A DNA stretch of 64,000 nucleotides from Dictyostelium discoideum (Eukaryota). Every line of letters starts with the position of its first letter. Position 1 is the first letter of the stretch. Of the stretch, positions 6,099-30,832 are shown in pieces. Where the stretch lies: positions 5,061,353-5,125,352 of the forward strand of contig CM000154.2 in NCBI GenBank assembly GCA_000004695.1. The letters run 5' to 3'. The notes under the pieces are model-generated. The model did not search any database. It was not told where the DNA came from and saw only the letters and a program-made list of their open reading frames with translations. Position numbers and translations under genes: made by a program.

Positions 6099-7348
6099 TA
6101 AATATAATAAAAAAAAAAAAAAAAAGAATTATTTGTTAATAAATTTAATTTAATTTAAAAAAAAAATATAATTTTTTTTAAAAAAAAAAAAAAAAAACAT
6201 ACATGGGTAACTGGTAATAAATCTTTTTCTTTTTTTAACATTGATAAAACACCAACTACTAATTTTTGAATTTGAGATTCTAATTGTTCAACTGAAAGAA
6301 TTGAACAAATTGAACCAACTGCTTCAATGGTTACTAATCTAACTTTTTCATGATTTGTACCTAACCATTTTGAAAACATTAATTCAAGTGCTGGATAAAA
6401 TTCAGAACTAAAACTATACAATGTTAATGATTTATCTGGTGCTGTATCAATATTTGCAACATATTGCACAATTGCATCTGCAAAATGACCTAATGCTGCT
6501 GCAAATACCCATTTAAAATTATCATGTTTAATTGTACCTAAAACTGGTAAAATACGTGATAAAATTTCTCTAATTTTTGGTACAGTTGGTATTGCTATTT
6601 TTTAAAAAAAATAAGAATAATGGTTAATATATAAATATATATTTATTTTGTTATTATTTTATTTTTATTTTGAAAAAAAAAAAAAACATACGATTTGAAC
6701 TAATAAAATCACCTAAAGTTTTCATAACGAAATAATGTGGTAATGTACCTGGTTCAAAACGTTTTAATAATTCATCCATAATTTGTGATGGATAACGTAA
6801 ACCTAATGAAACCAATAATGATGATGCAACTTGTTGCCAATCTGGTACAACTTCTTTATCTCTTGTCATCTCTGAAATTGACATTGCAATTAAATTTAGT
6901 GATAATGCATCTGTTAATTGATTTCTAGTTTGTTCTAAAATTTGTAAAATACTATTTAAAATTTTAACCCTATGAGTTTGATCTATCTAAATACAAAAAA
7001 AAATATAAAAATAAAAAAATAAAAATAAAAATTGATTAGTTTTATTTTTATTTCACACACACACAAATAATCCTTTGGGAAAAAAAAAAAAAAAATTTTT
7101 TAAACAATAATTTAATCCAATTCAAAAAAAAAAAAAAAATAAACAATAATTTAATTGATTACCTTTTGGTTCTTATTTATATAATCACATGCAACTTGTA
7201 AAACAAAATTTGGTTGTCTAAAACCAATTTCGTATAAACTATTTACAACAGTACTTCTAACACTTTCATCACTGTCGCTTAATGATTGCAACAATGATGT
7301 GACAATATTATCCAAAACTGGAGAAATTTGTTGATTTTTTTTTGACAT
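1995..7348 (-). CDS. mroh1: Maestro heat-like repeat protein (MROH1/HEATR7A homolog), ~1647 aa. Exons complement(join(1995..6065,6203..6594,6692..6986,7163..7348)).
   Basis: Exon 2 translation (SEMTRDKEVVPDWQQVASSLLVSLGLRYPSQIMDELLKRFEPGTLPHYFVMKTLGDFISSN) aligns closely with human MROH1 residues ~95-160 (SSEMTKVKDLVWDWQQAASSVLVAVGRRF...LPHRAVLHTL). Exons 3 and 4 continue the alignment (ILSRILPVLGTIKHDNFKWVFAAALGHF; EVLRCFEVIGR vs EVLRCFTVLAC). The 1331-aa terminal exon has HEAT-like repeats. Introns have GTAATC/GTATGT donors and AG acceptors with frame continuity. Length matches human (1641 aa). Confidence 0.85.
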
Positions 7349-7675
7349 TTTTAATGTTTAATTTTAAAAAAATATCAAAAAAAAAAAAAGGATTAATTAT
7401 TTAAAGGGTGAAAAAAAAAAAAATGGAAAAAAAAAAAAAAAAAAGATATATTGATTGAAACACAAATAACTATAAAATTCAAAAGAAAAATCTTTAAGTT
7501 GGTTTTTTTTTTATTTTAAAAAAAAAATAAAATAAAAATTTTTTTTTTTATTTTTTTTATTTTTTTTTTATTTTATTTTTTTTTATTTTTTTTTTTTTTT
7601 GAGAACAATGAAAATATGGGTGATGAATAATTTGTGCTTTTTACCTAATTTTATTAATAATAAATGTTCAAAAAT

Positions 7676-8415
7676 AAAATAAAATAAAAATGATAACTTA
7701 AATTATTTCCTTTTTTTTTTTTTTTTTTTTTTTTCTCTCATAGATTTATTATTTTCACATTATTTAGTAAAATCAAACCAATAAATTCTATAAAATGTTA
7801 AGATAAAAAAAAAAAATAAAAAAAAAATAATAAAATAAATAAAATAAAAATAATAATAAAAAAACAAATTTGTTTTATTAATTAAAATATATAGATTGAT
7901 CCTTGGAAAGCAATAGCATCTAACCAAGAAGTTTATGCAACTTTTCTCTGGATCCAAATGTAAATTTAAACCTTTTATACCTACTGATAAAATGGATTTC
8001 CATTGTTTTCAAGTGGAAGATTGTTAATGGTATACCTATCCATAGAGATGTACCATCTTGTTATAATATGATAGTCAAATGTAAGGTTGAAATCTATGCT
8101 TCTCATTTAAATACGAAAGATGATTTAATTTTCAATGTATTTAGTTCAGCTTTTTAAAAGAAAAAAAATAAATAAATCCATTCATTCATATTCCATTGTT
8201 CTAAAATAAATAAAAAATTAAAAATGAAAATATGAATGAATTTATTTTTTTTTAAAAAAAAAATAAAAAAAAAAAAAAAATAAATAAATAAATAAAATAA
8301 AAATGATAACTTAAATTATTTCCTTTTTTTTTTTTCTCTTAAGATTTTTTTATTTTTTTTATTAATATTTTCACATTATTTAGTTAACATTTTATAGAAT
8401 TTGGTTTGATTTTTT
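7676..8415. repeat. Two copies of a ~125-bp A/T-rich element (7676-7802 and 8281-8415) bracketing a GC-richer non-coding island (~7895-8160). The terminal ~30-bp sub-segment is inverted between the copies.
   Basis: The motif aataaaataaaaatgataacttaaattatttcc + T-run + ...ttttcacattatttagt occurs at 7683-7769 and 8288-8386. Copy 1 is followed by aaaatcaaaccaataaattctataaaatgttaa (7770-7802). Copy 2 is followed by taacattttatagaatttggtttgatttt (8386-8414), which is the reverse complement of that segment minus 3 nt. Confidence 0.5.
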
Positions 8416-8490
8416 TAAGATTTTAAAAAGAAAAAAATAATTAAAAAAATAAATAAATAAAAAAATATCAAAATCTGATAAAAATAGAAT

Positions 8491-8530
<40 letters not shown>

Positions 8531-9284
8531 TAATTTGATCATCAATATATTTAATCGCTTCAAACAATAGCTTTTTTTTCTTATAAGTTTATCATATCTT
8601 TTTTGGTTTCTCGTTGTTGATTACCATAAAATTAGTGGAATTTTTAGAAATCTTATAAATAAATTTTTTCTTTTTTTTTTCTTTTTTTTTTCATGAAAAA
8701 AATTCAAAATGAATTTAATTTAATTTTTTTAATTTTTTGAAAAAAAAAATCATTCAAAAAAAAAAATATAAATTTAAAAAAAATTTTATCATTTTAATCA
8801 TTTGTTAATCAAATATCAAAGTAAATATTATTATTATTATTGTATAAATAATTAATTCAATTTTTTTTTTTTTCTTTTTCTCTCCCCATCTTTTGCAATG
8901 TAATAATACAAAAAAAAAAAAAAAAAAAAATAATATAAACAAATAAATATCAGAATCAACCCACACATATAAAAAAAAAAAAAAAACTCGCAGCATATTG
9001 GTTTTAAAAAAAAATAAAATAATAATAATAATACCCAAGATTAAAAAAGAAAAAAAAAAAAAAAAAAAAAAGGAATTTAATAATTAAAATTTAATATTCA
9101 AAAATAAAAAATATCATAATCAAATTTGATTTTTTTTTTTTTCTTTATTTATTAACAAAACTATTCACACACCATCCGATCAATCTTTTTTTTTATGTTT
9201 TTTTTTTTTTTTCAGATATTTTTCCTCTAACTGCAAAATATCCTAATTTTTTTCAAAAAAAAACATTTTTTTTTTATTTTTTTC

Positions 9285-9315
<31 letters not shown>

Positions 9316-9460
9316 TTTTTTTTTTTTCTAAAAATTTTTTTTGATTATTAACTTTATCAAATTTCTTTTTTTTTTTTTTTATAGATTTTTTTTTTTTTTT
9401 TTTTAATTTAAATTATTTTCTCCAAATTTATTTTTAATATACAAATAATATATATATAAA

Positions 9461-12114
9461 ATGGCTACACCAGTCCAAGCTTCTACTGTAATTCGTGTTA
9501 AACCACATCATTATATTCATGTAAGTAATTTTGAATTTAATTTTTATAATATAATAATTAAATATTTATATTAATAATTTATATTTTTTTTTTTTTTTAT
9601 AAATTATTATTATTATTTATTAAATTCTTTTAGGTATTAGATAATAATACAAATGTTACAAGAGTTGAAGTTGGACCACAAACATTTACTAGACAAGATC
9701 ATGAACGTGTATTAAATCCAACTCCATTACCAATGATTTTGATCCCACCAAGACAATATTGTATTATTGAAAACCCAATTATTAGAGATAAAGAAGGTAA
9801 ATTAGTTGTTGATAAATTCAATCAACCAAAACTCCGTCATGGTGATCAAGAAATTCGTTTCTCTCAAGATCCATTCCCATTATATCCAGGTGAAGTTGTC
9901 ATTGCTCAACCAGTTCCATTACAAGTCATCCAAACCAATAGTGCACTTCGTTTGAAATGTCTTCGTGATTTCGTTGAAGTCAAAGCTGACAAAACCACAG
10001 TCAGTCACATTGCTGGTGATGAATGGTTATTCGAAGGTCCAGGTACCTATTATCCACGTGTTGAAGTTCAAGTTGTTGAACCAGTTCGTGCAGTTATCAT
10101 CAAAGAAAATCAAGCACTCAAATTACGTGCTCGTCTCTCATTTGTTGACCGTCGTGATGTAGTTCGTCAAGTTGGTGAAGAATGGTTAGTTCGTGAAAGT
10201 GGTGCCTATCTTCCAGGTGTCAGTGAAGAAATTGTTGGTTTCATTCAAGCCTTAGTCTTAACCGATCGTATCGCTTATCAATTATTAGCCACTCGTTCAT
10301 TCACCGATAGCTTTGGTAAAGTTAGAAAAGCTGGTGAAGAATGGATTATCACTCAAAAGGATTGTGATACCTATATCCCAGATGTCAATGAAAAAGTCAT
10401 TCGTGATATTAAAGCTATCACTCTTACCAATCGTCAATACTGTATCGTTGAGAATCCAATTGATCCAAAAACCGGTAAAAATAAATTGGGTCACAAAGAA
10501 CTCCTCCAAGGTGATCGTACTTTCTTCCTTATGCCAGGTGAAAGTTTAGTTAAAGGTATCCAAAATGTTAATGTTTTATCTGAAGATGAAGCTTTACTCT
10601 TAAGTGCCAAAGAGGAATTTGTCGAAAAGAAAGGTACCACCACCATCGTTCACAAACCAGGTGATCTTTGGATGATTTATGGTCCATGTGATTACATTCC
10701 ACCAATTCAAGTCGATGTTGTTGAACGTAGAAAGCGTATTCCATTAGATGTCAACGAAGGTATCTATGTCCGTGATATTAAAACTGGTAAAGTTCGTTCA
10801 GTTCATGGTTCATCCTACATGTTATTACCAAATGAAGAACGTTGGGCTAAACCATTAGCACCAATCGTCGAAGAACTCCTCAAAAAATCTGCATCACGTG
10901 ATCAAAATGAAGAACACAATGAATCTGATCGTGATTCAACCAAAGTTATCACCTATCGTGTACCACACAATGCCGCCGTTCAAATCTTTGATTACAGAAA
11001 GAAAGAAGCTCGTGTTGTATTTGGTCCAGAACTTGTTATGTTAGAACCAGATGAGGAATTCACTGTTCTCTCTTTATCTGGTAAGATTCCAAAACGTCCA
11101 AATCACATTCGTTCATTGGCTCTCTTCTTGGGTCCAGATTTCATGACCGATTTAATCACTGTCGAAACTGCTGATCATGCTCGTCTCTCACTCAAATTAT
11201 CTTACAACTGGCACTTTAAGGTCGAGCAAGACAATCCATCCAAATTATTCGCCACCTCTGATTTCACTGGTGATTTATGTAAAGCCACTGGTAGTTTAGT
11301 TCGTGCCGCCGTCGCTGCCAGCACCTTTGATAACTTCCACAAACACTCTTCCGATATCATTCAACAAGCCGTTTTCGGTTCAACCGATGGTTCAAGCAAT
11401 GATTGCTTATACTTTGAAACCAATGGTTTGGTCATCACAAACATTGATGTTCAATCTGTAGAACCAGTCGATCAACGTACTCTTGATTCTTTACAAAAAT
11501 CTGTTCAATTAGCCATTGAAATTACCACCAAATCACAAGAAGCCACTGCTCGTCAAGAAGCTGAACGTTTAGAACAAATGGCTCGTGGTGAACTTGAACG
11601 TCAAAAGATTATCGATGAAGCCAAGAACGAAGAATCTCGTTCCAAATTGGTCCAATTACAAGCTCAATCAGCTGCTGTCGAATCAACTGGTCAAGCTGTT
11701 GCTGAAGCTCGTGCTCGTGCTGAAGCCGCCATCATTGAAGCTGAAAGTGAAATCAAACAAGCTCGTCTCTCAACCAGAGCCATTGAAATTGAAGCTCTCT
11801 CTGAAATTGAAAATCTTAAAGCCAAACATATTGTTGAAATCCAACACATCAAATCACTCAACAATCTCGAATTAATTAAAGCCAAAGAAAGTGCTACCAT
11901 CGAAACTACCAAATTCGAAAACTATGTTGAAGCCCTCGGTTCCGATACTATCAAATCAATCGCCCAAGCTCCAGAAGAAACCAAGGCTAAATTATTAGCT
12001 GGTTTGGGTCTCAAATCATTCATGATTACTGATGGTAAATCACCACTCAATCTTTTCGATACTGCCAATGGTTTAATTGCTGATGCTCAAAGATCAGAAG
12101 TCGATGAAGAATAA
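9461..12114 (+). CDS. Major vault protein, 846 aa. Exons join(9461..9520,9634..12114).
   Basis: Exon 1 [20 protein letters not shown] plus exon 2 [43 protein letters not shown] matches the conserved MVP N-terminus ([37 protein letters not shown]...VPPRHYC). The rest is repeated MVP domains and a C-terminal coiled-coil shoulder/cap region ([20 protein letters not shown]...). Intron 9521-9633 has a GTAAGT donor and TAG acceptor. The 846-aa length would fit mvpB rather than mvpA if my memory of the two Dictyostelium paralog lengths is right, but I have not assigned it. Confidence 0.9.
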
Positions 12115-29568: not shown

Positions 29569-30450
29569 ATGAGAATATTAATTTTTTTAATAATATTAAT
29601 TCTAATAATAAATATTACTAATGGTAGTGATGAAGAATATTTCACAGTTCGTAAAGATTTACGTAAATGCGCAACTTGTGGTGGGTATTTCTTTAAAAGA
29701 ATAAATTCAGATGAAAAAGAAATGCATGTCACAGGACTTTCATTAATTAATGCTAATTTGAAACCAAATAAGATGGAAGATGAAAAGAATGTAATTATTA
29801 GTGGTGATATTACTTTAACTGATAAAGATCAAGGATTTTATAGTTTCTTCTTAAAAGGAATTCATCATAGAATGGTATTACCACCAAGTGATGATAATAA
29901 ATCAAATTCAAAAAATCTTAAAAATTCCACATCAGAATCATATGGTTTCATTTCAAATTCTGGTACTACTTGTATTCAAGCAAAGGGTTGTCCAATTTAT
30001 AAGTTTTCAAAAATCAATACCAATGAAACTACTAATTTTGCAACCTATACTGAACCTTATACATCCTGTGTTCCATTATTGGATAAAGATTGGTTCTCCT
30101 CGAGATTAATTAAAACTGATACTTCTTTTTATGTTGGTTCCATTGTCTTGGGATCAATTTCAAAGGGTGAATTAACAATTTCAAGTATTTTTGTTAATAC
30201 AGAAGATCCAGCCTTACCATGCCCAGAAAATCCAAGTTGTCCTGGTGGTAAAATTCAAACTTTTACTCGTTCCGTTAATCGTTGTCCAATCTTTAACAAA
30301 TGCGTAAATAGAGGTGTCTGTCATCTTGGAATTCCTCATTGTCCAGTTGGTTATACTTCTTATTCTTTACAATCTGCTCCAAATGGTTGTTTAAAGTATT
30401 ATTGTGATCCTGATTCTTTACCAAATCCATCAACTGTTTTAGGTCCTTAA
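29569..30450 (+). CDS. Secreted cysteine-rich protein of unknown family, 293 aa. Paralog B of the tandem pair.
   Basis: Real start is MRILIFLIILILIINITNG (the track ORF starts 36 nt earlier in A-rich leader). Motifs are shared with paralog A: EYFTVRKDLRKCATCGGYFFKR, CIQAKGCPIYKFSKINTNETTNF.TYTEPYTS.VPLLD, and the C-terminal CPIFNKCVNRGVCHLGIPHCPVGYTSYSLQSAPNGCLKYYCDPDSLPNPSTVLGP. Confidence 0.6.
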   Translation: MRILIFLIILILIINITNGSDEEYFTVRKDLRKCATCGGYFFKRINSDEKEMHVTGLSLINANLKPNKMEDEKNVIISGDITLTDKDQGFYSFFLKGIHHRMVLPPSDDNKSNSKNLKNSTSESYGFISNSGTTCIQAKGCPIYKFSKINTNETTNFATYTEPYTSCVPLLDKDWFSSRLIKTDTSFYVGSIVLGSISKGELTISSIFVNTEDPALPCPENPSCPGGKIQTFTRSVNRCPIFNKCVNRGVCHLGIPHCPVGYTSYSLQSAPNGCLKYYCDPDSLPNPSTVLGP

Positions 30451-30832
30451 AATAAAAATAAAAATGAAAATATGACTTTTTATTTTTTAAAATCAAAATA
30501 ACAAAAACATATTTTCATTTTTATTGTTTTTTTTTTTTTTTAAAATCAAATCAGTGGATAGAATAAAAAAATTTAAATAAAATAGTTATTACCTTTTTTT
30601 TTTTAAAACAAAAAAAATAAATGAATTAAATCTGGATTATTTTATTTGTTTTTTTTATAATTTTTTCAAATATTTAAATTTGATTGGTTGTGGTAATTTT
30701 TACCCTCCTTTTAGTGAAATTGGTATATTTTTATTAAAATTAAATAACAAAAACAATTACAAAAAATGAATGGTAAATAATTAAATTCTTTAAAAAAAAA
30801 AAAAAAACAGAATTGTATAAACCTAAAATTAA

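Follow-up and report, generated by a model that had tools for sequence, protein, structure and literature searches.

A probable tandem duplication with a decayed gene-like insert and a lineage-specific micro-inversion between mroh1 and mvpB in Dictyostelium discoideum

Between two divergently oriented genes of Dictyostelium discoideum, mroh1 and mvpB, a GC-richer island stands between two copies of an A/T-rich sequence, and a short segment at the end of one copy reads in the opposite direction from its counterpart in the other. What is this arrangement: a functional element, the footprint of a mobile one, or spacer DNA in decay? We examined it in a 64,000-nucleotide stretch of the AX4 genome (hereafter the window; contig CM000154.2, positions 5,061,353 to 5,125,352 of the forward strand), and coordinates below are those of the window unless another locus is named. 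A first-pass annotation had placed the repeats between mroh1 and an MVP gene, and its naming of both neighbours was correct: they are mroh1 (Maestro HEAT repeats; minus strand, start at 7348) and mvpB (major vault protein beta, P54659; plus strand, start at 9462, with an intron at 9522-9634). The divergent spacer that holds the repeats and the island is unusually long, at 2113 bp (7349-9461). Our conclusion is that the region is a decaying structural variant of this spacer and not a functional element. The explanation that we regard as probable is a tandem duplication with a gene-like insert at its junction, neutral decay of the insert, and then, on the AX4 lineage, a deletion and a micro-inversion of the template-switch type.

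Nine Dictyostelium assemblies contribute to the 90%-identity cluster of the mvpB ORF, and we compared the syntenic 22-kb loci of eight of these: D. citrinum (L001), an independent assembly of D. discoideum that is essentially AX4 (L002), D. firmibasis (L003), D. dimigraforme (L004), two assemblies of D. cf. discoideum (L005 and L006), and two further D. discoideum isolates (L007 and L008). The gene order mroh1, mvpB, glycogen phosphorylase is kept in all eight loci. A distance tree built from 5980 ungapped columns (6 kb of mvpB and glycogen phosphorylase) has the topology ((((L007,L008),(AX4,L002)),L006),L005), followed by D. citrinum, D. dimigraforme, and D. firmibasis. The repeat-island-repeat structure of L002 is identical to that of AX4; 31 alignment columns differ, comprising a few substitutions and indels in A/T runs (one of them a 5-T length change in the T run of copy A), and none of the differences falls inside the island or the specific repeat blocks. 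Because the independent L002 assembly shows the same structure, an assembly artefact is ruled out.

The repeat itself is real, and it extends further than the roughly 125-bp copies at 7676-7802 and 8281-8415 that had first been reported: it begins near 7596 and 8212, and a gapped alignment pairs 7604-7869 with 8220-8505. BLASTN of copy A against copy B gives 85% identity over about 100 columns (107 bits), while the other matches within the 64-kb window reach at most 63 bits and are A/T-rich and unrelated. Exact blocks run collinearly from copy A to copy B (7607 to 8223, 7689 to 8302, and 7752 to 8368). The longest exact direct repeat in the spacer, counting only those with at least two G or C and no long homopolymer, reaches 40 nt; when the spacer was shuffled 200 times by dinucleotides, the longest repeat averaged 12.3 nt and never exceeded 17. 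The direct-repeat part of copy A (unit 1; 7596..7768, plus strand), from TTTTTGAGAACAATGAAAATATG to TTTTCACATTATTTAGT, shares collinear exact blocks with copy B (unit 2; 8220..8384, plus strand). The remainder of unit 2 (8417..8546, plus strand) contains TATCAAAATCTGATAAAAAT (8466-8485) and GGTAATTTGATCATCAA.

The same unit is present in the relatives. L005 has one copy at the syntenic position, and the left end of the unit (TTTTTGAGAACAATGAAAA) is found in the same place in D. citrinum; AX4, L002, L007, and L008 have two units each, as does L006 (at 8190-8533 and 8785-9085 of its locus). In L006, L007, and L008 the unit is longer than in AX4, continuing past the 30-bp segment via TATCAAAATCTGATAAAAA and GGTAATTT to GATATGATAAAC, and the unit 1 counterpart of 8417..8546, which is deleted in AX4, survives in these three genomes. 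Orthologues of copy A are the A copies of L007, L008, and L006 and the single copy of L005, and copy B has B-specific features that are common to the B copies of L007 and L008. Since A copies resemble each other across strains and B copies do likewise, the duplication must be older than the split between AX4 and L007/L008. We found no further copy of the unit elsewhere in the 64-kb window or elsewhere in the eight 22-kb loci. By this comparison, the two repeats come from an old tandem duplication of ancestral spacer sequence at this place, common to the D. discoideum strains and L006. The first-pass annotation had itself named a simple local duplication as what its proposals might reduce to, and that is where the evidence leads.

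After TTTTCACATTATTTAGT the two copies in AX4 become reverse complements of each other for about 32 nt, with exact blocks of 19 and 13 nt, which agrees with the earlier observation of some 30 bp lying in opposite orientation in the two copies (7769-7801 against 8385-8416). Two strings of copy A, AAATTCTATAAAATGTTAA (7783) and AAAATCAAACCAA (7769), recur reverse-complemented at 8384 and 8401. The 19-nt exact inverted match is borderline when taken alone, the shuffle maximum also being 19; the 32-nt pattern, with three mismatches allowed, has a chance expectation of 0.00 occurrences in the window. The segment of copy A (7769..7801, plus strand; 33 nt, AAAATCAAACCAATAAATTCTATAAAATGTTAA) has the ancestral orientation, which is shared by L005, both copies of L006, both copies of L008, and copy B of L007, copy A of L007 having lost the segment. 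The reversed orientation occurs only in copy B of AX4 and L002.

In this copy B (8385..8416, minus strand) everything from the end of TTTAGT to the start of AAGATTTT has been replaced where it stood by its reverse complement, and three small deletions came with the change. Aligned to the reverse complement of the 37-nt segment of L008 copy B, AX4 8385-8416 gives 31 matches, no mismatches, and three small gaps (score 21.5, compared with -5 in the forward orientation), and the flanks on either side, ending in CACATTATTTAGT and beginning with AAGATTTT, are identical between the two. Because the L008 orthologue aligns reverse-complemented between identical flanks, the inversion of 8385-8416 is proven; the flipped segment is a derived micro-inversion that took place once, in place and recently, on the AX4 lineage. 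We found no inverted-repeat arms or hairpin around it (fold z = -0.4 in AX4 and +0.7 in the ancestral-like copy B of L008). Hairpin-loop flipping was considered as its source and rejected, as no stem surrounds the segment. The switch points share at most 1-2 nt of microhomology. An in-place reverse complement with unchanged flanks, derived in one lineage, is the mark of a template-switch microinversion, and the most likely mechanism is a short template switch within a replication fork.

More REARRANGEMENTS lie close to the flipped segment, namely the block 8547-8612 and a module in D. citrinum. The block, a second small inversion 150 bp downstream of the flipped segment (8547..8612), contains TTTCTTATAAGTTTATCATATCTTTTT / TTTCTTATAAGTTTATCATATC... 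and is bracketed by the inverted repeat GGTAAT..ATCAA / TTGTTGATTACC. It has the plus orientation in unit 2 of AX4, L002, L006, L007, and L008, and the minus orientation in L001, L003, L004, and L005 and in unit 1 of L006, L007, and L008. In D. citrinum the whole module CATTATTTAGT...AAACCAA...AAGATT, of which the flipped segment is a part, is turned round while the anchors on both sides stay collinear. When the other ~20 kb of the syntenic region was scanned by k-mers, few further candidate micro-inversions emerged (3 or fewer in other non-coding DNA, which by estimate amounts to roughly 4-5 kb), against about four inversion or fold-back events within ~1.2 kb of this spacer; by this crude comparison, the mroh1-mvpB spacer looks structurally unstable across the D. 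discoideum species complex.

L005 also carries an unrelated gene-like insert of 0.7 kb, about 100 bp away from the point where the D. discoideum insert sits. Repeated AAATCTGATAAAAAT flanks this L005 insert, whose annotation is that of a 161-aa protein (P0131). It shows no homology to the island, either as DNA or in six-frame comparison, and a search for homologues returned only the insert itself. A suspected likeness to a MOSC domain was discarded after the match to mARC1 proved non-significant (E = 1.7) and Pfam gave no match.

The sequence between the two units poses a separate problem. The island (7895..8157, plus strand) had been described as a stretch of lower A+T without a credible ORF, and this description holds: GC content is 0.26-0.32 across 7900-8149 and 0.04-0.14 in the flanks, and the longest ORF has 41 aa. 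A tandem duplication that took in the island was tried and rejected, 7870-8219 having no similarity to 8480-8900 on either strand. The first-pass annotation had proposed comparing AX4 with other strains for presence or absence and for orientation. The island is present in AX4 and L002 (100% identical) and in L007 and L008 (88-90%), which makes three distinct sequences, and was not found in L001 or in L003 to L006, all of which have the same flanking genes; it is in this way confined to the D. discoideum clade.

The setting of the island is gene-like in L007 and L008. There it is directly preceded by a tract of 89% A+T, GTATGT...ATATAG (71 nt in L007), and upstream of this tract by an exon-like segment with an (AAT)n run in front of it. 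The conceptual mRNA of L007, join(8170..8286, 8358..8483), contains an intact two-exon ORF of 80 aa, with its ATG inside the ancestral motif GATATGATAAAC and AATAAA signals downstream, and in L008 the exon 1 portion of the ATG frame contains stops. A second, offset open frame after the stop (KIVNGIPIHRD...) is common to all strains, which suggests an old shared frameshift. The AX4 island reads as the relic of a last exon, with offset frames IDPWKAIASNQEVYATF, SGSKCKFKPFIPTDKMDFHCFQVEDC, and KIVNGIPIHRD...SSAF* and with AATAAA-type signals after them; it carries frameshifts and has a 1-nt insertion relative to L007 and L008. Upstream of it, AX4 retains the 3' end of the intron-like tract (7873..7894, plus strand; TTTTATTAATTAAAATATATAG), which ends in an acceptor-like AG and aligns to the 3' end of the 71-nt tract of L007 and L008.

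Compared with L007 8100-8357 and L008 7990-8390, the A-rich tract at 7802..7872 is the scar of an AX4-lineage deletion of ~250-450 bp. The deletion took the remainder of unit 1, the ATG, the exon-1-like segment, and the 5' half of the intron-like tract, and left the scar, the acceptor-like end, and the island. On the other side of the island lies a junction hairpin (8168..8246), in which 8168-8203, a partial reverse-complement copy of the left end of the unit recognized by eye, faces the start of copy B (8220-8246). Folded as DNA, this hairpin has a free energy of -14.6 kcal/mol (z = -3.9), and none of 200 shuffles folds as well. L007 and L008 have the hairpin too, that of L007 with an (ATTC)n expansion.

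The insert has the marks of decay. Divergence is 10-12% in the island, 13-15% in the mvpB intron, and ~4% at 4-fold sites of mvpB. Counted by hand from the alignment, the substitutions between AX4 and L007/L008 fall 10, 10, and 6 by position modulo 3, with neither codon periodicity nor a third-position excess in the island, and strains differ by indels of 1, 6, and 1 nt. The insert drifts neutrally, diverging about as fast as the nearby intron. It has the gene-like anatomy, the disabling lesions, and the neutral evolution of a pseudogene, but phmmer, word-indexed, Pfam, and PDB searches gave no recognizable homology to a parent gene or family, which a pseudogene should also have. The possibility that the island is a copy of mvpB or mroh1 was rejected when blastn and tblastn against the window gave no match, and the island shows no similarity to any other part of the 64 kb. 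Pfam identified no domain in four frames of the island; phmmer with frame +2 against 1.8 billion representatives returned a single match, to a spurious repetitive ORF or repeat protein; a conceptual protein corrected for the frameshifts matched nothing among 5.8 billion clustered proteins, PDB sequences, or Pfam; and an exact look-up of the 41-aa and 30-aa ORFs of the island found neither on record.

Taken with its lesions, the anatomy of the island identifies it as what appears to be the dead last exon of a gene-like insert confined to the D. discoideum clade, for which these searches yielded no donor. We infer that the insert is junctional filler, no parent gene having been found. It could instead be an older sequence since lost from L006 and L005, and the island may derive from a repeat family or from organelle DNA. 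Homology between the insert and the inter-unit spacer of L006 (8534-8784 of its locus) was tested and rejected, the alignment score of 19.3 being no better than that of shuffles (16 +/- 2, maximum 22.6). Insertion may accordingly have come before the duplication or after it.

The intact frame in L007 raises another reading of the insert, as a lineage-restricted and possibly de novo two-exon protein gene that draws its ATG from GATATGATAAAC, is functional in some wild strains such as L007, and survives in AX4 as a pseudogenised remnant. The 80-aa ORF, the canonical 71-nt tract, the downstream AATAAA signals, and the exon-like GC content of the island all suit such a gene. Yet the annotations of L007 and L008 show no gene here, the ATG frame of L008 contains stops, AX4 lacks exon 1, the offset second frame in every strain suggests an old frameshift, third positions show no excess of substitutions, and neither a homologue among the 5.8 billion clustered proteins nor a domain was found; we consider a functional gene unlikely. 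We think it quite unlikely that a lineage-specific two-exon micro-gene, with a start codon taken from GATATGATAAAC, was born at this locus and soon died, being still intact in at least one wild lineage (L007) and already destroyed in AX4 and L008. Were that so, the mroh1-mvpB spacer would be a recurrent hot spot of capture and rearrangement, a view supported by the L005 insert some 100 bp away and by the four inversion or fold-back events in ~1.2 kb. It is very unlikely, in our judgment, that the island is a functional non-coding element in AX4, be it a lncRNA or small-RNA gene or an enhancer or insulator for mroh1 and mvpB, with the repeats as its flanks. Its place in an unusually long divergent spacer, its 88-90% conservation among D. 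discoideum strains, and a plus-strand fold slightly better than shuffles would fit a function; against this, the fold is not significant (z-scores of -1.6, for the plus strand, and -0.4). The short ncRNA gene suggested in the first-pass annotation finds no counterpart in the searches either: Rfam gave nothing at gathering score and only chance-level matches at E<=10, the window contains no tRNA gene, the 11-nt class-I RNA motif, which we take to be CCTTACAGCAA, is absent from the spacer with up to one mismatch allowed, and the DUSE motif ([AT]CCCA[CT]AA, which would be expected about 60 nt upstream of such a gene) has five matches in the window and none in 7349-9461. The supplements of a lncRNA survey of D. 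discoideum gave no match by neighbouring gene names. Moreover, neither the sister lineages L005 and L006 nor the three other species have the island, and it diverges about as fast as an intron, while spacer blocks that are truly conserved, such as 9154-9251, are kept in all eight genomes.

Two further readings concern the repeats and the flip. In one, carried over from the earlier suggestion of a small non-autonomous element, the locus is the footprint of a MITE-like element, a solo LTR, or a piece of DDT, thug, Tdd, DGLT, or Skipper, with copies A and B as its ends or as a long target duplication. The island is indeed polymorphic for presence among lineages, the ~30-nt inverted copy of the left end at 8168-8203 gives 7600-8203 the look of a sequence with terminal inverted repeats, and L005 has a gene-like insert of another kind no more than ~100 bp from this spot. 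The copies, however, are ancestral local sequence and not element ends, the unit being syntenic spacer; as direct repeats of more than 160 bp they are far longer than the target duplications made by transposases. Terminal inverted repeats of the MITE type were not found, A and B being direct and the only inverted copy an internal fold-back at the junction; nor was a target-site duplication of 2-10 bp with an empty site in relatives, the unit itself being single-copy spacer in L005 and its left end being present in L001. The conceptual translation matches no transposon protein, and no second copy was found in the 64 kb or the eight 22-kb loci. The usual targets of TRE and DGLT-A elements are tRNA genes, of which the window has none. 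An element of this kind is highly improbable here. That the 30-bp segment is a programmed invertible switch, its orientation regulating a neighbouring gene, is more improbable still, vanishingly so: the two copies do lie in opposite orientations and other inversions lie nearby, but no inverted-repeat arms or hairpin flank the segment, its orientation is fixed for each copy and lineage (both AX4-type assemblies agree), the small deletions that came with the inversion make it not cleanly reversible, and no recombinase is associated with it. The inversion-prone module of the first-pass annotation survives, weakly, as a mutational property of the spacer, seen in the AX4 flip, the D. citrinum module, the block 8547-8612, and the fold-back; these are fixed events, and as a switch it does not stand.

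The tandem duplication with a decaying junctional insert can be set out as a series of events. In the common ancestor of D. discoideum and L006 a piece of ancestral spacer was duplicated in tandem; it measures at least 350 bp and begins at TTTTTGAGAACAATG, passes through CACATTATTTAGT and ATCTGATAAAAAT, and ends at GGTAATTT..GATATGATAAAC. At the junction of the units, the D. discoideum clade has ~600 bp of gene-like DNA consisting of the (AAT)n tract, the exon-like segment, the 71-nt intron-like tract (GTATGT...ATATAG), and the last exon that is now the island, presumably filler that was copied in by a replication or repair event, whether the one that made the duplication or a later one. Template switching at the junction would fit, because a fold-back copy of the left end of the unit lies at the distal junction. 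The insert drifted neutrally, acquiring stops in exon 1 of L008 and keeping the 80-aa ORF in L007 alone. On the AX4 lineage, the deletion of ~250-450 bp produced the present order of copy A, A-rich scar, and orphaned last exon, with the 5' splice site gone. On the same lineage, ~37 nt of copy B between TTTAGT and AAGATTTT were flipped in place, most likely by a template switch in which the polymerase copied the complementary strand and then returned. The AX4 island is most likely without function, at most filling space passively in the upstream region that mroh1 and mvpB share.

The kinds of mutation seen at the locus are known ones, of which it is a new case. The literature documents both short template switching and microinversions as classes of mutation (PMC5453318, PMC8604942, PMC8755829), including short-range template-switch mutations (Loytynoja and Goldman, 2017; PMC5453318) and the microinversions that separate human and chimpanzee (PMC8755829). 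As in those cases (PMC5453318, PMC8755829), tens of nucleotides in AX4 are reverse-complemented in place, with flanks untouched and indels at the edges, and the event is lineage-specific and lies in non-coding DNA. Unlike the template-switch cases, the AX4 flip sits in one arm of a tandem duplication within a protist spacer of ~90% A+T, and its probable mechanism is read from the product. The block 8547-8612, bracketed by GGTAAT..ATCAA / TTGTTGATTACC and flipping between lineages, resembles the inversion of spacers between inverted repeats by template switching (PMC8604942). The 30-bp segment, which lacks such arms, differs from that class. Small hairpin-loop inversions are known in chloroplast non-coding DNA; the arms of 8547-8612 are weak and form no stable predicted hairpin (z = 0.1), unlike those of hairpin-loop inversions. 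Replication-based rearrangement of the FoSTeS/MMBIR type produces tandem duplications with templated or filler insertions at the junction. The arrangement described here is similar in that two direct local copies bracket foreign DNA and a small fold-back inverted copy lies at one junction, and it differs in its small scale (a unit of ~0.35-0.6 kb) and in that the searches brought up no donor for the filler. In its exon-like GC content, its intron-like tract, the frameshifts and stops that differ between strains, and its neutral divergence, the insert is also like an unprocessed pseudogene or a dying orphan gene; unlike an unprocessed pseudogene, it has no detectable parent gene or homologue, and it may never have been a working gene.

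For the biology of the organism the finding matters little, and its value is that of a worked example of how a repeat-island-repeat pattern with an internal flip can come from ordinary errors of replication and repair. Where such patterns occur in A+T-rich Dictyostelium spacers, annotation as a mobile element or an RNA gene should need comparative evidence. The locus also documents a clean, polarised micro-inversion in a protist. For those who work with AX4, the comparison of genomes suggests that the ~0.9 kb at 7600-8500 upstream of mvpB is lineage-specific and probably dispensable.

A second small inversion lies at window positions 8547-8612, where it is bracketed by a short inverted repeat (GGTAAT..ATCAA / TTGTTGATTACC). 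The block is in the plus orientation in unit 2 of the tandemly duplicated spacer sequence in AX4, the near-AX4 genome L002, the D. cf. discoideum locus L006 and the D. discoideum isolates L007 and L008, and in the minus orientation in D. citrinum, D. dimigraforme, D. firmibasis and the other D. cf. discoideum locus, L005, as well as in unit 1 of L006-L008. At 8660-8790 of the D. citrinum locus (L001), the module CATTATTTAGT...AAACCAA...AAGATT is oriented opposite to that of the D. discoideum complex while its anchors remain collinear; this arrangement of the sequences implies a larger inversion, of about 130 bp, between D. citrinum and the complex.

The junction hairpin (window 8160-8250; L007 8644-8725) arises because the repeat unit's left end is present there in a second, folded-back copy, with a DNA fold z of -3.9; in L007 a microsatellite, (ATTC)n, has undergone a long expansion in the left arm. 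A 16-mer from that same end of the unit also occurs in a palindrome, AAAAATGAAAATATGA ... CATATTTTCATTTTT, located directly after a stop codon at window 30446-30523; this sharing is probably due to chance in A/T-rich DNA.

In L007, an intact conceptual two-exon ORF of 80 aa (join(8170..8286, 8358..8483); MINNNNNNSINAVAGCSG...MDFHCFQDC*) has neither annotation nor a homologue, and its ATG sits inside a motif of the spacer that every species conserves. Directly upstream of the exon-like segment, L008 repeats the (AAT) unit about 38 times (8107-8220), compared with only about five times in L007.

L005 (GCA_054859235.1) contains a GC-richer, gene-like insert of 0.7 kb (8100-8843), annotated as a hypothetical protein of 161 aa (P0131) and flanked by repeated AAATCTGATAAAAAT at 8047 and 8931, with a variant at 9003. 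P0131 had no Pfam match, and the only similarity found was a weak one to an mARC1 (MOSC-domain) protein (E = 1.7). This insert differs from the one in D. discoideum, whose insertion point is about 100 bp away.

A DUSE near match, AACCCACACATAT (7/8 positions), is found at window 8955-9005, with a short stretch of higher GC, CTCGCAGCATATTGG, after it. Each of the seven diverged genomes retains at least part of the sequence ATTACCATAAAATTAGTGGAATTTTTAGAAATCTTATA (window 8620-8657), a candidate regulatory block of the spacer; it is most complete in D. firmibasis, D. dimigraforme and L006. The blocks AACAAAACTATTCACACACCATCCGATCAATCTTTTT and TTTTTCAGATATTTTTCCTCTAACTGCAAAATATCCTAATTTTT (window 9154-9251) are near-invariant in all eight genomes, as far as D. 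firmibasis, and probably represent the core promoter or 5' UTR of mvpB.
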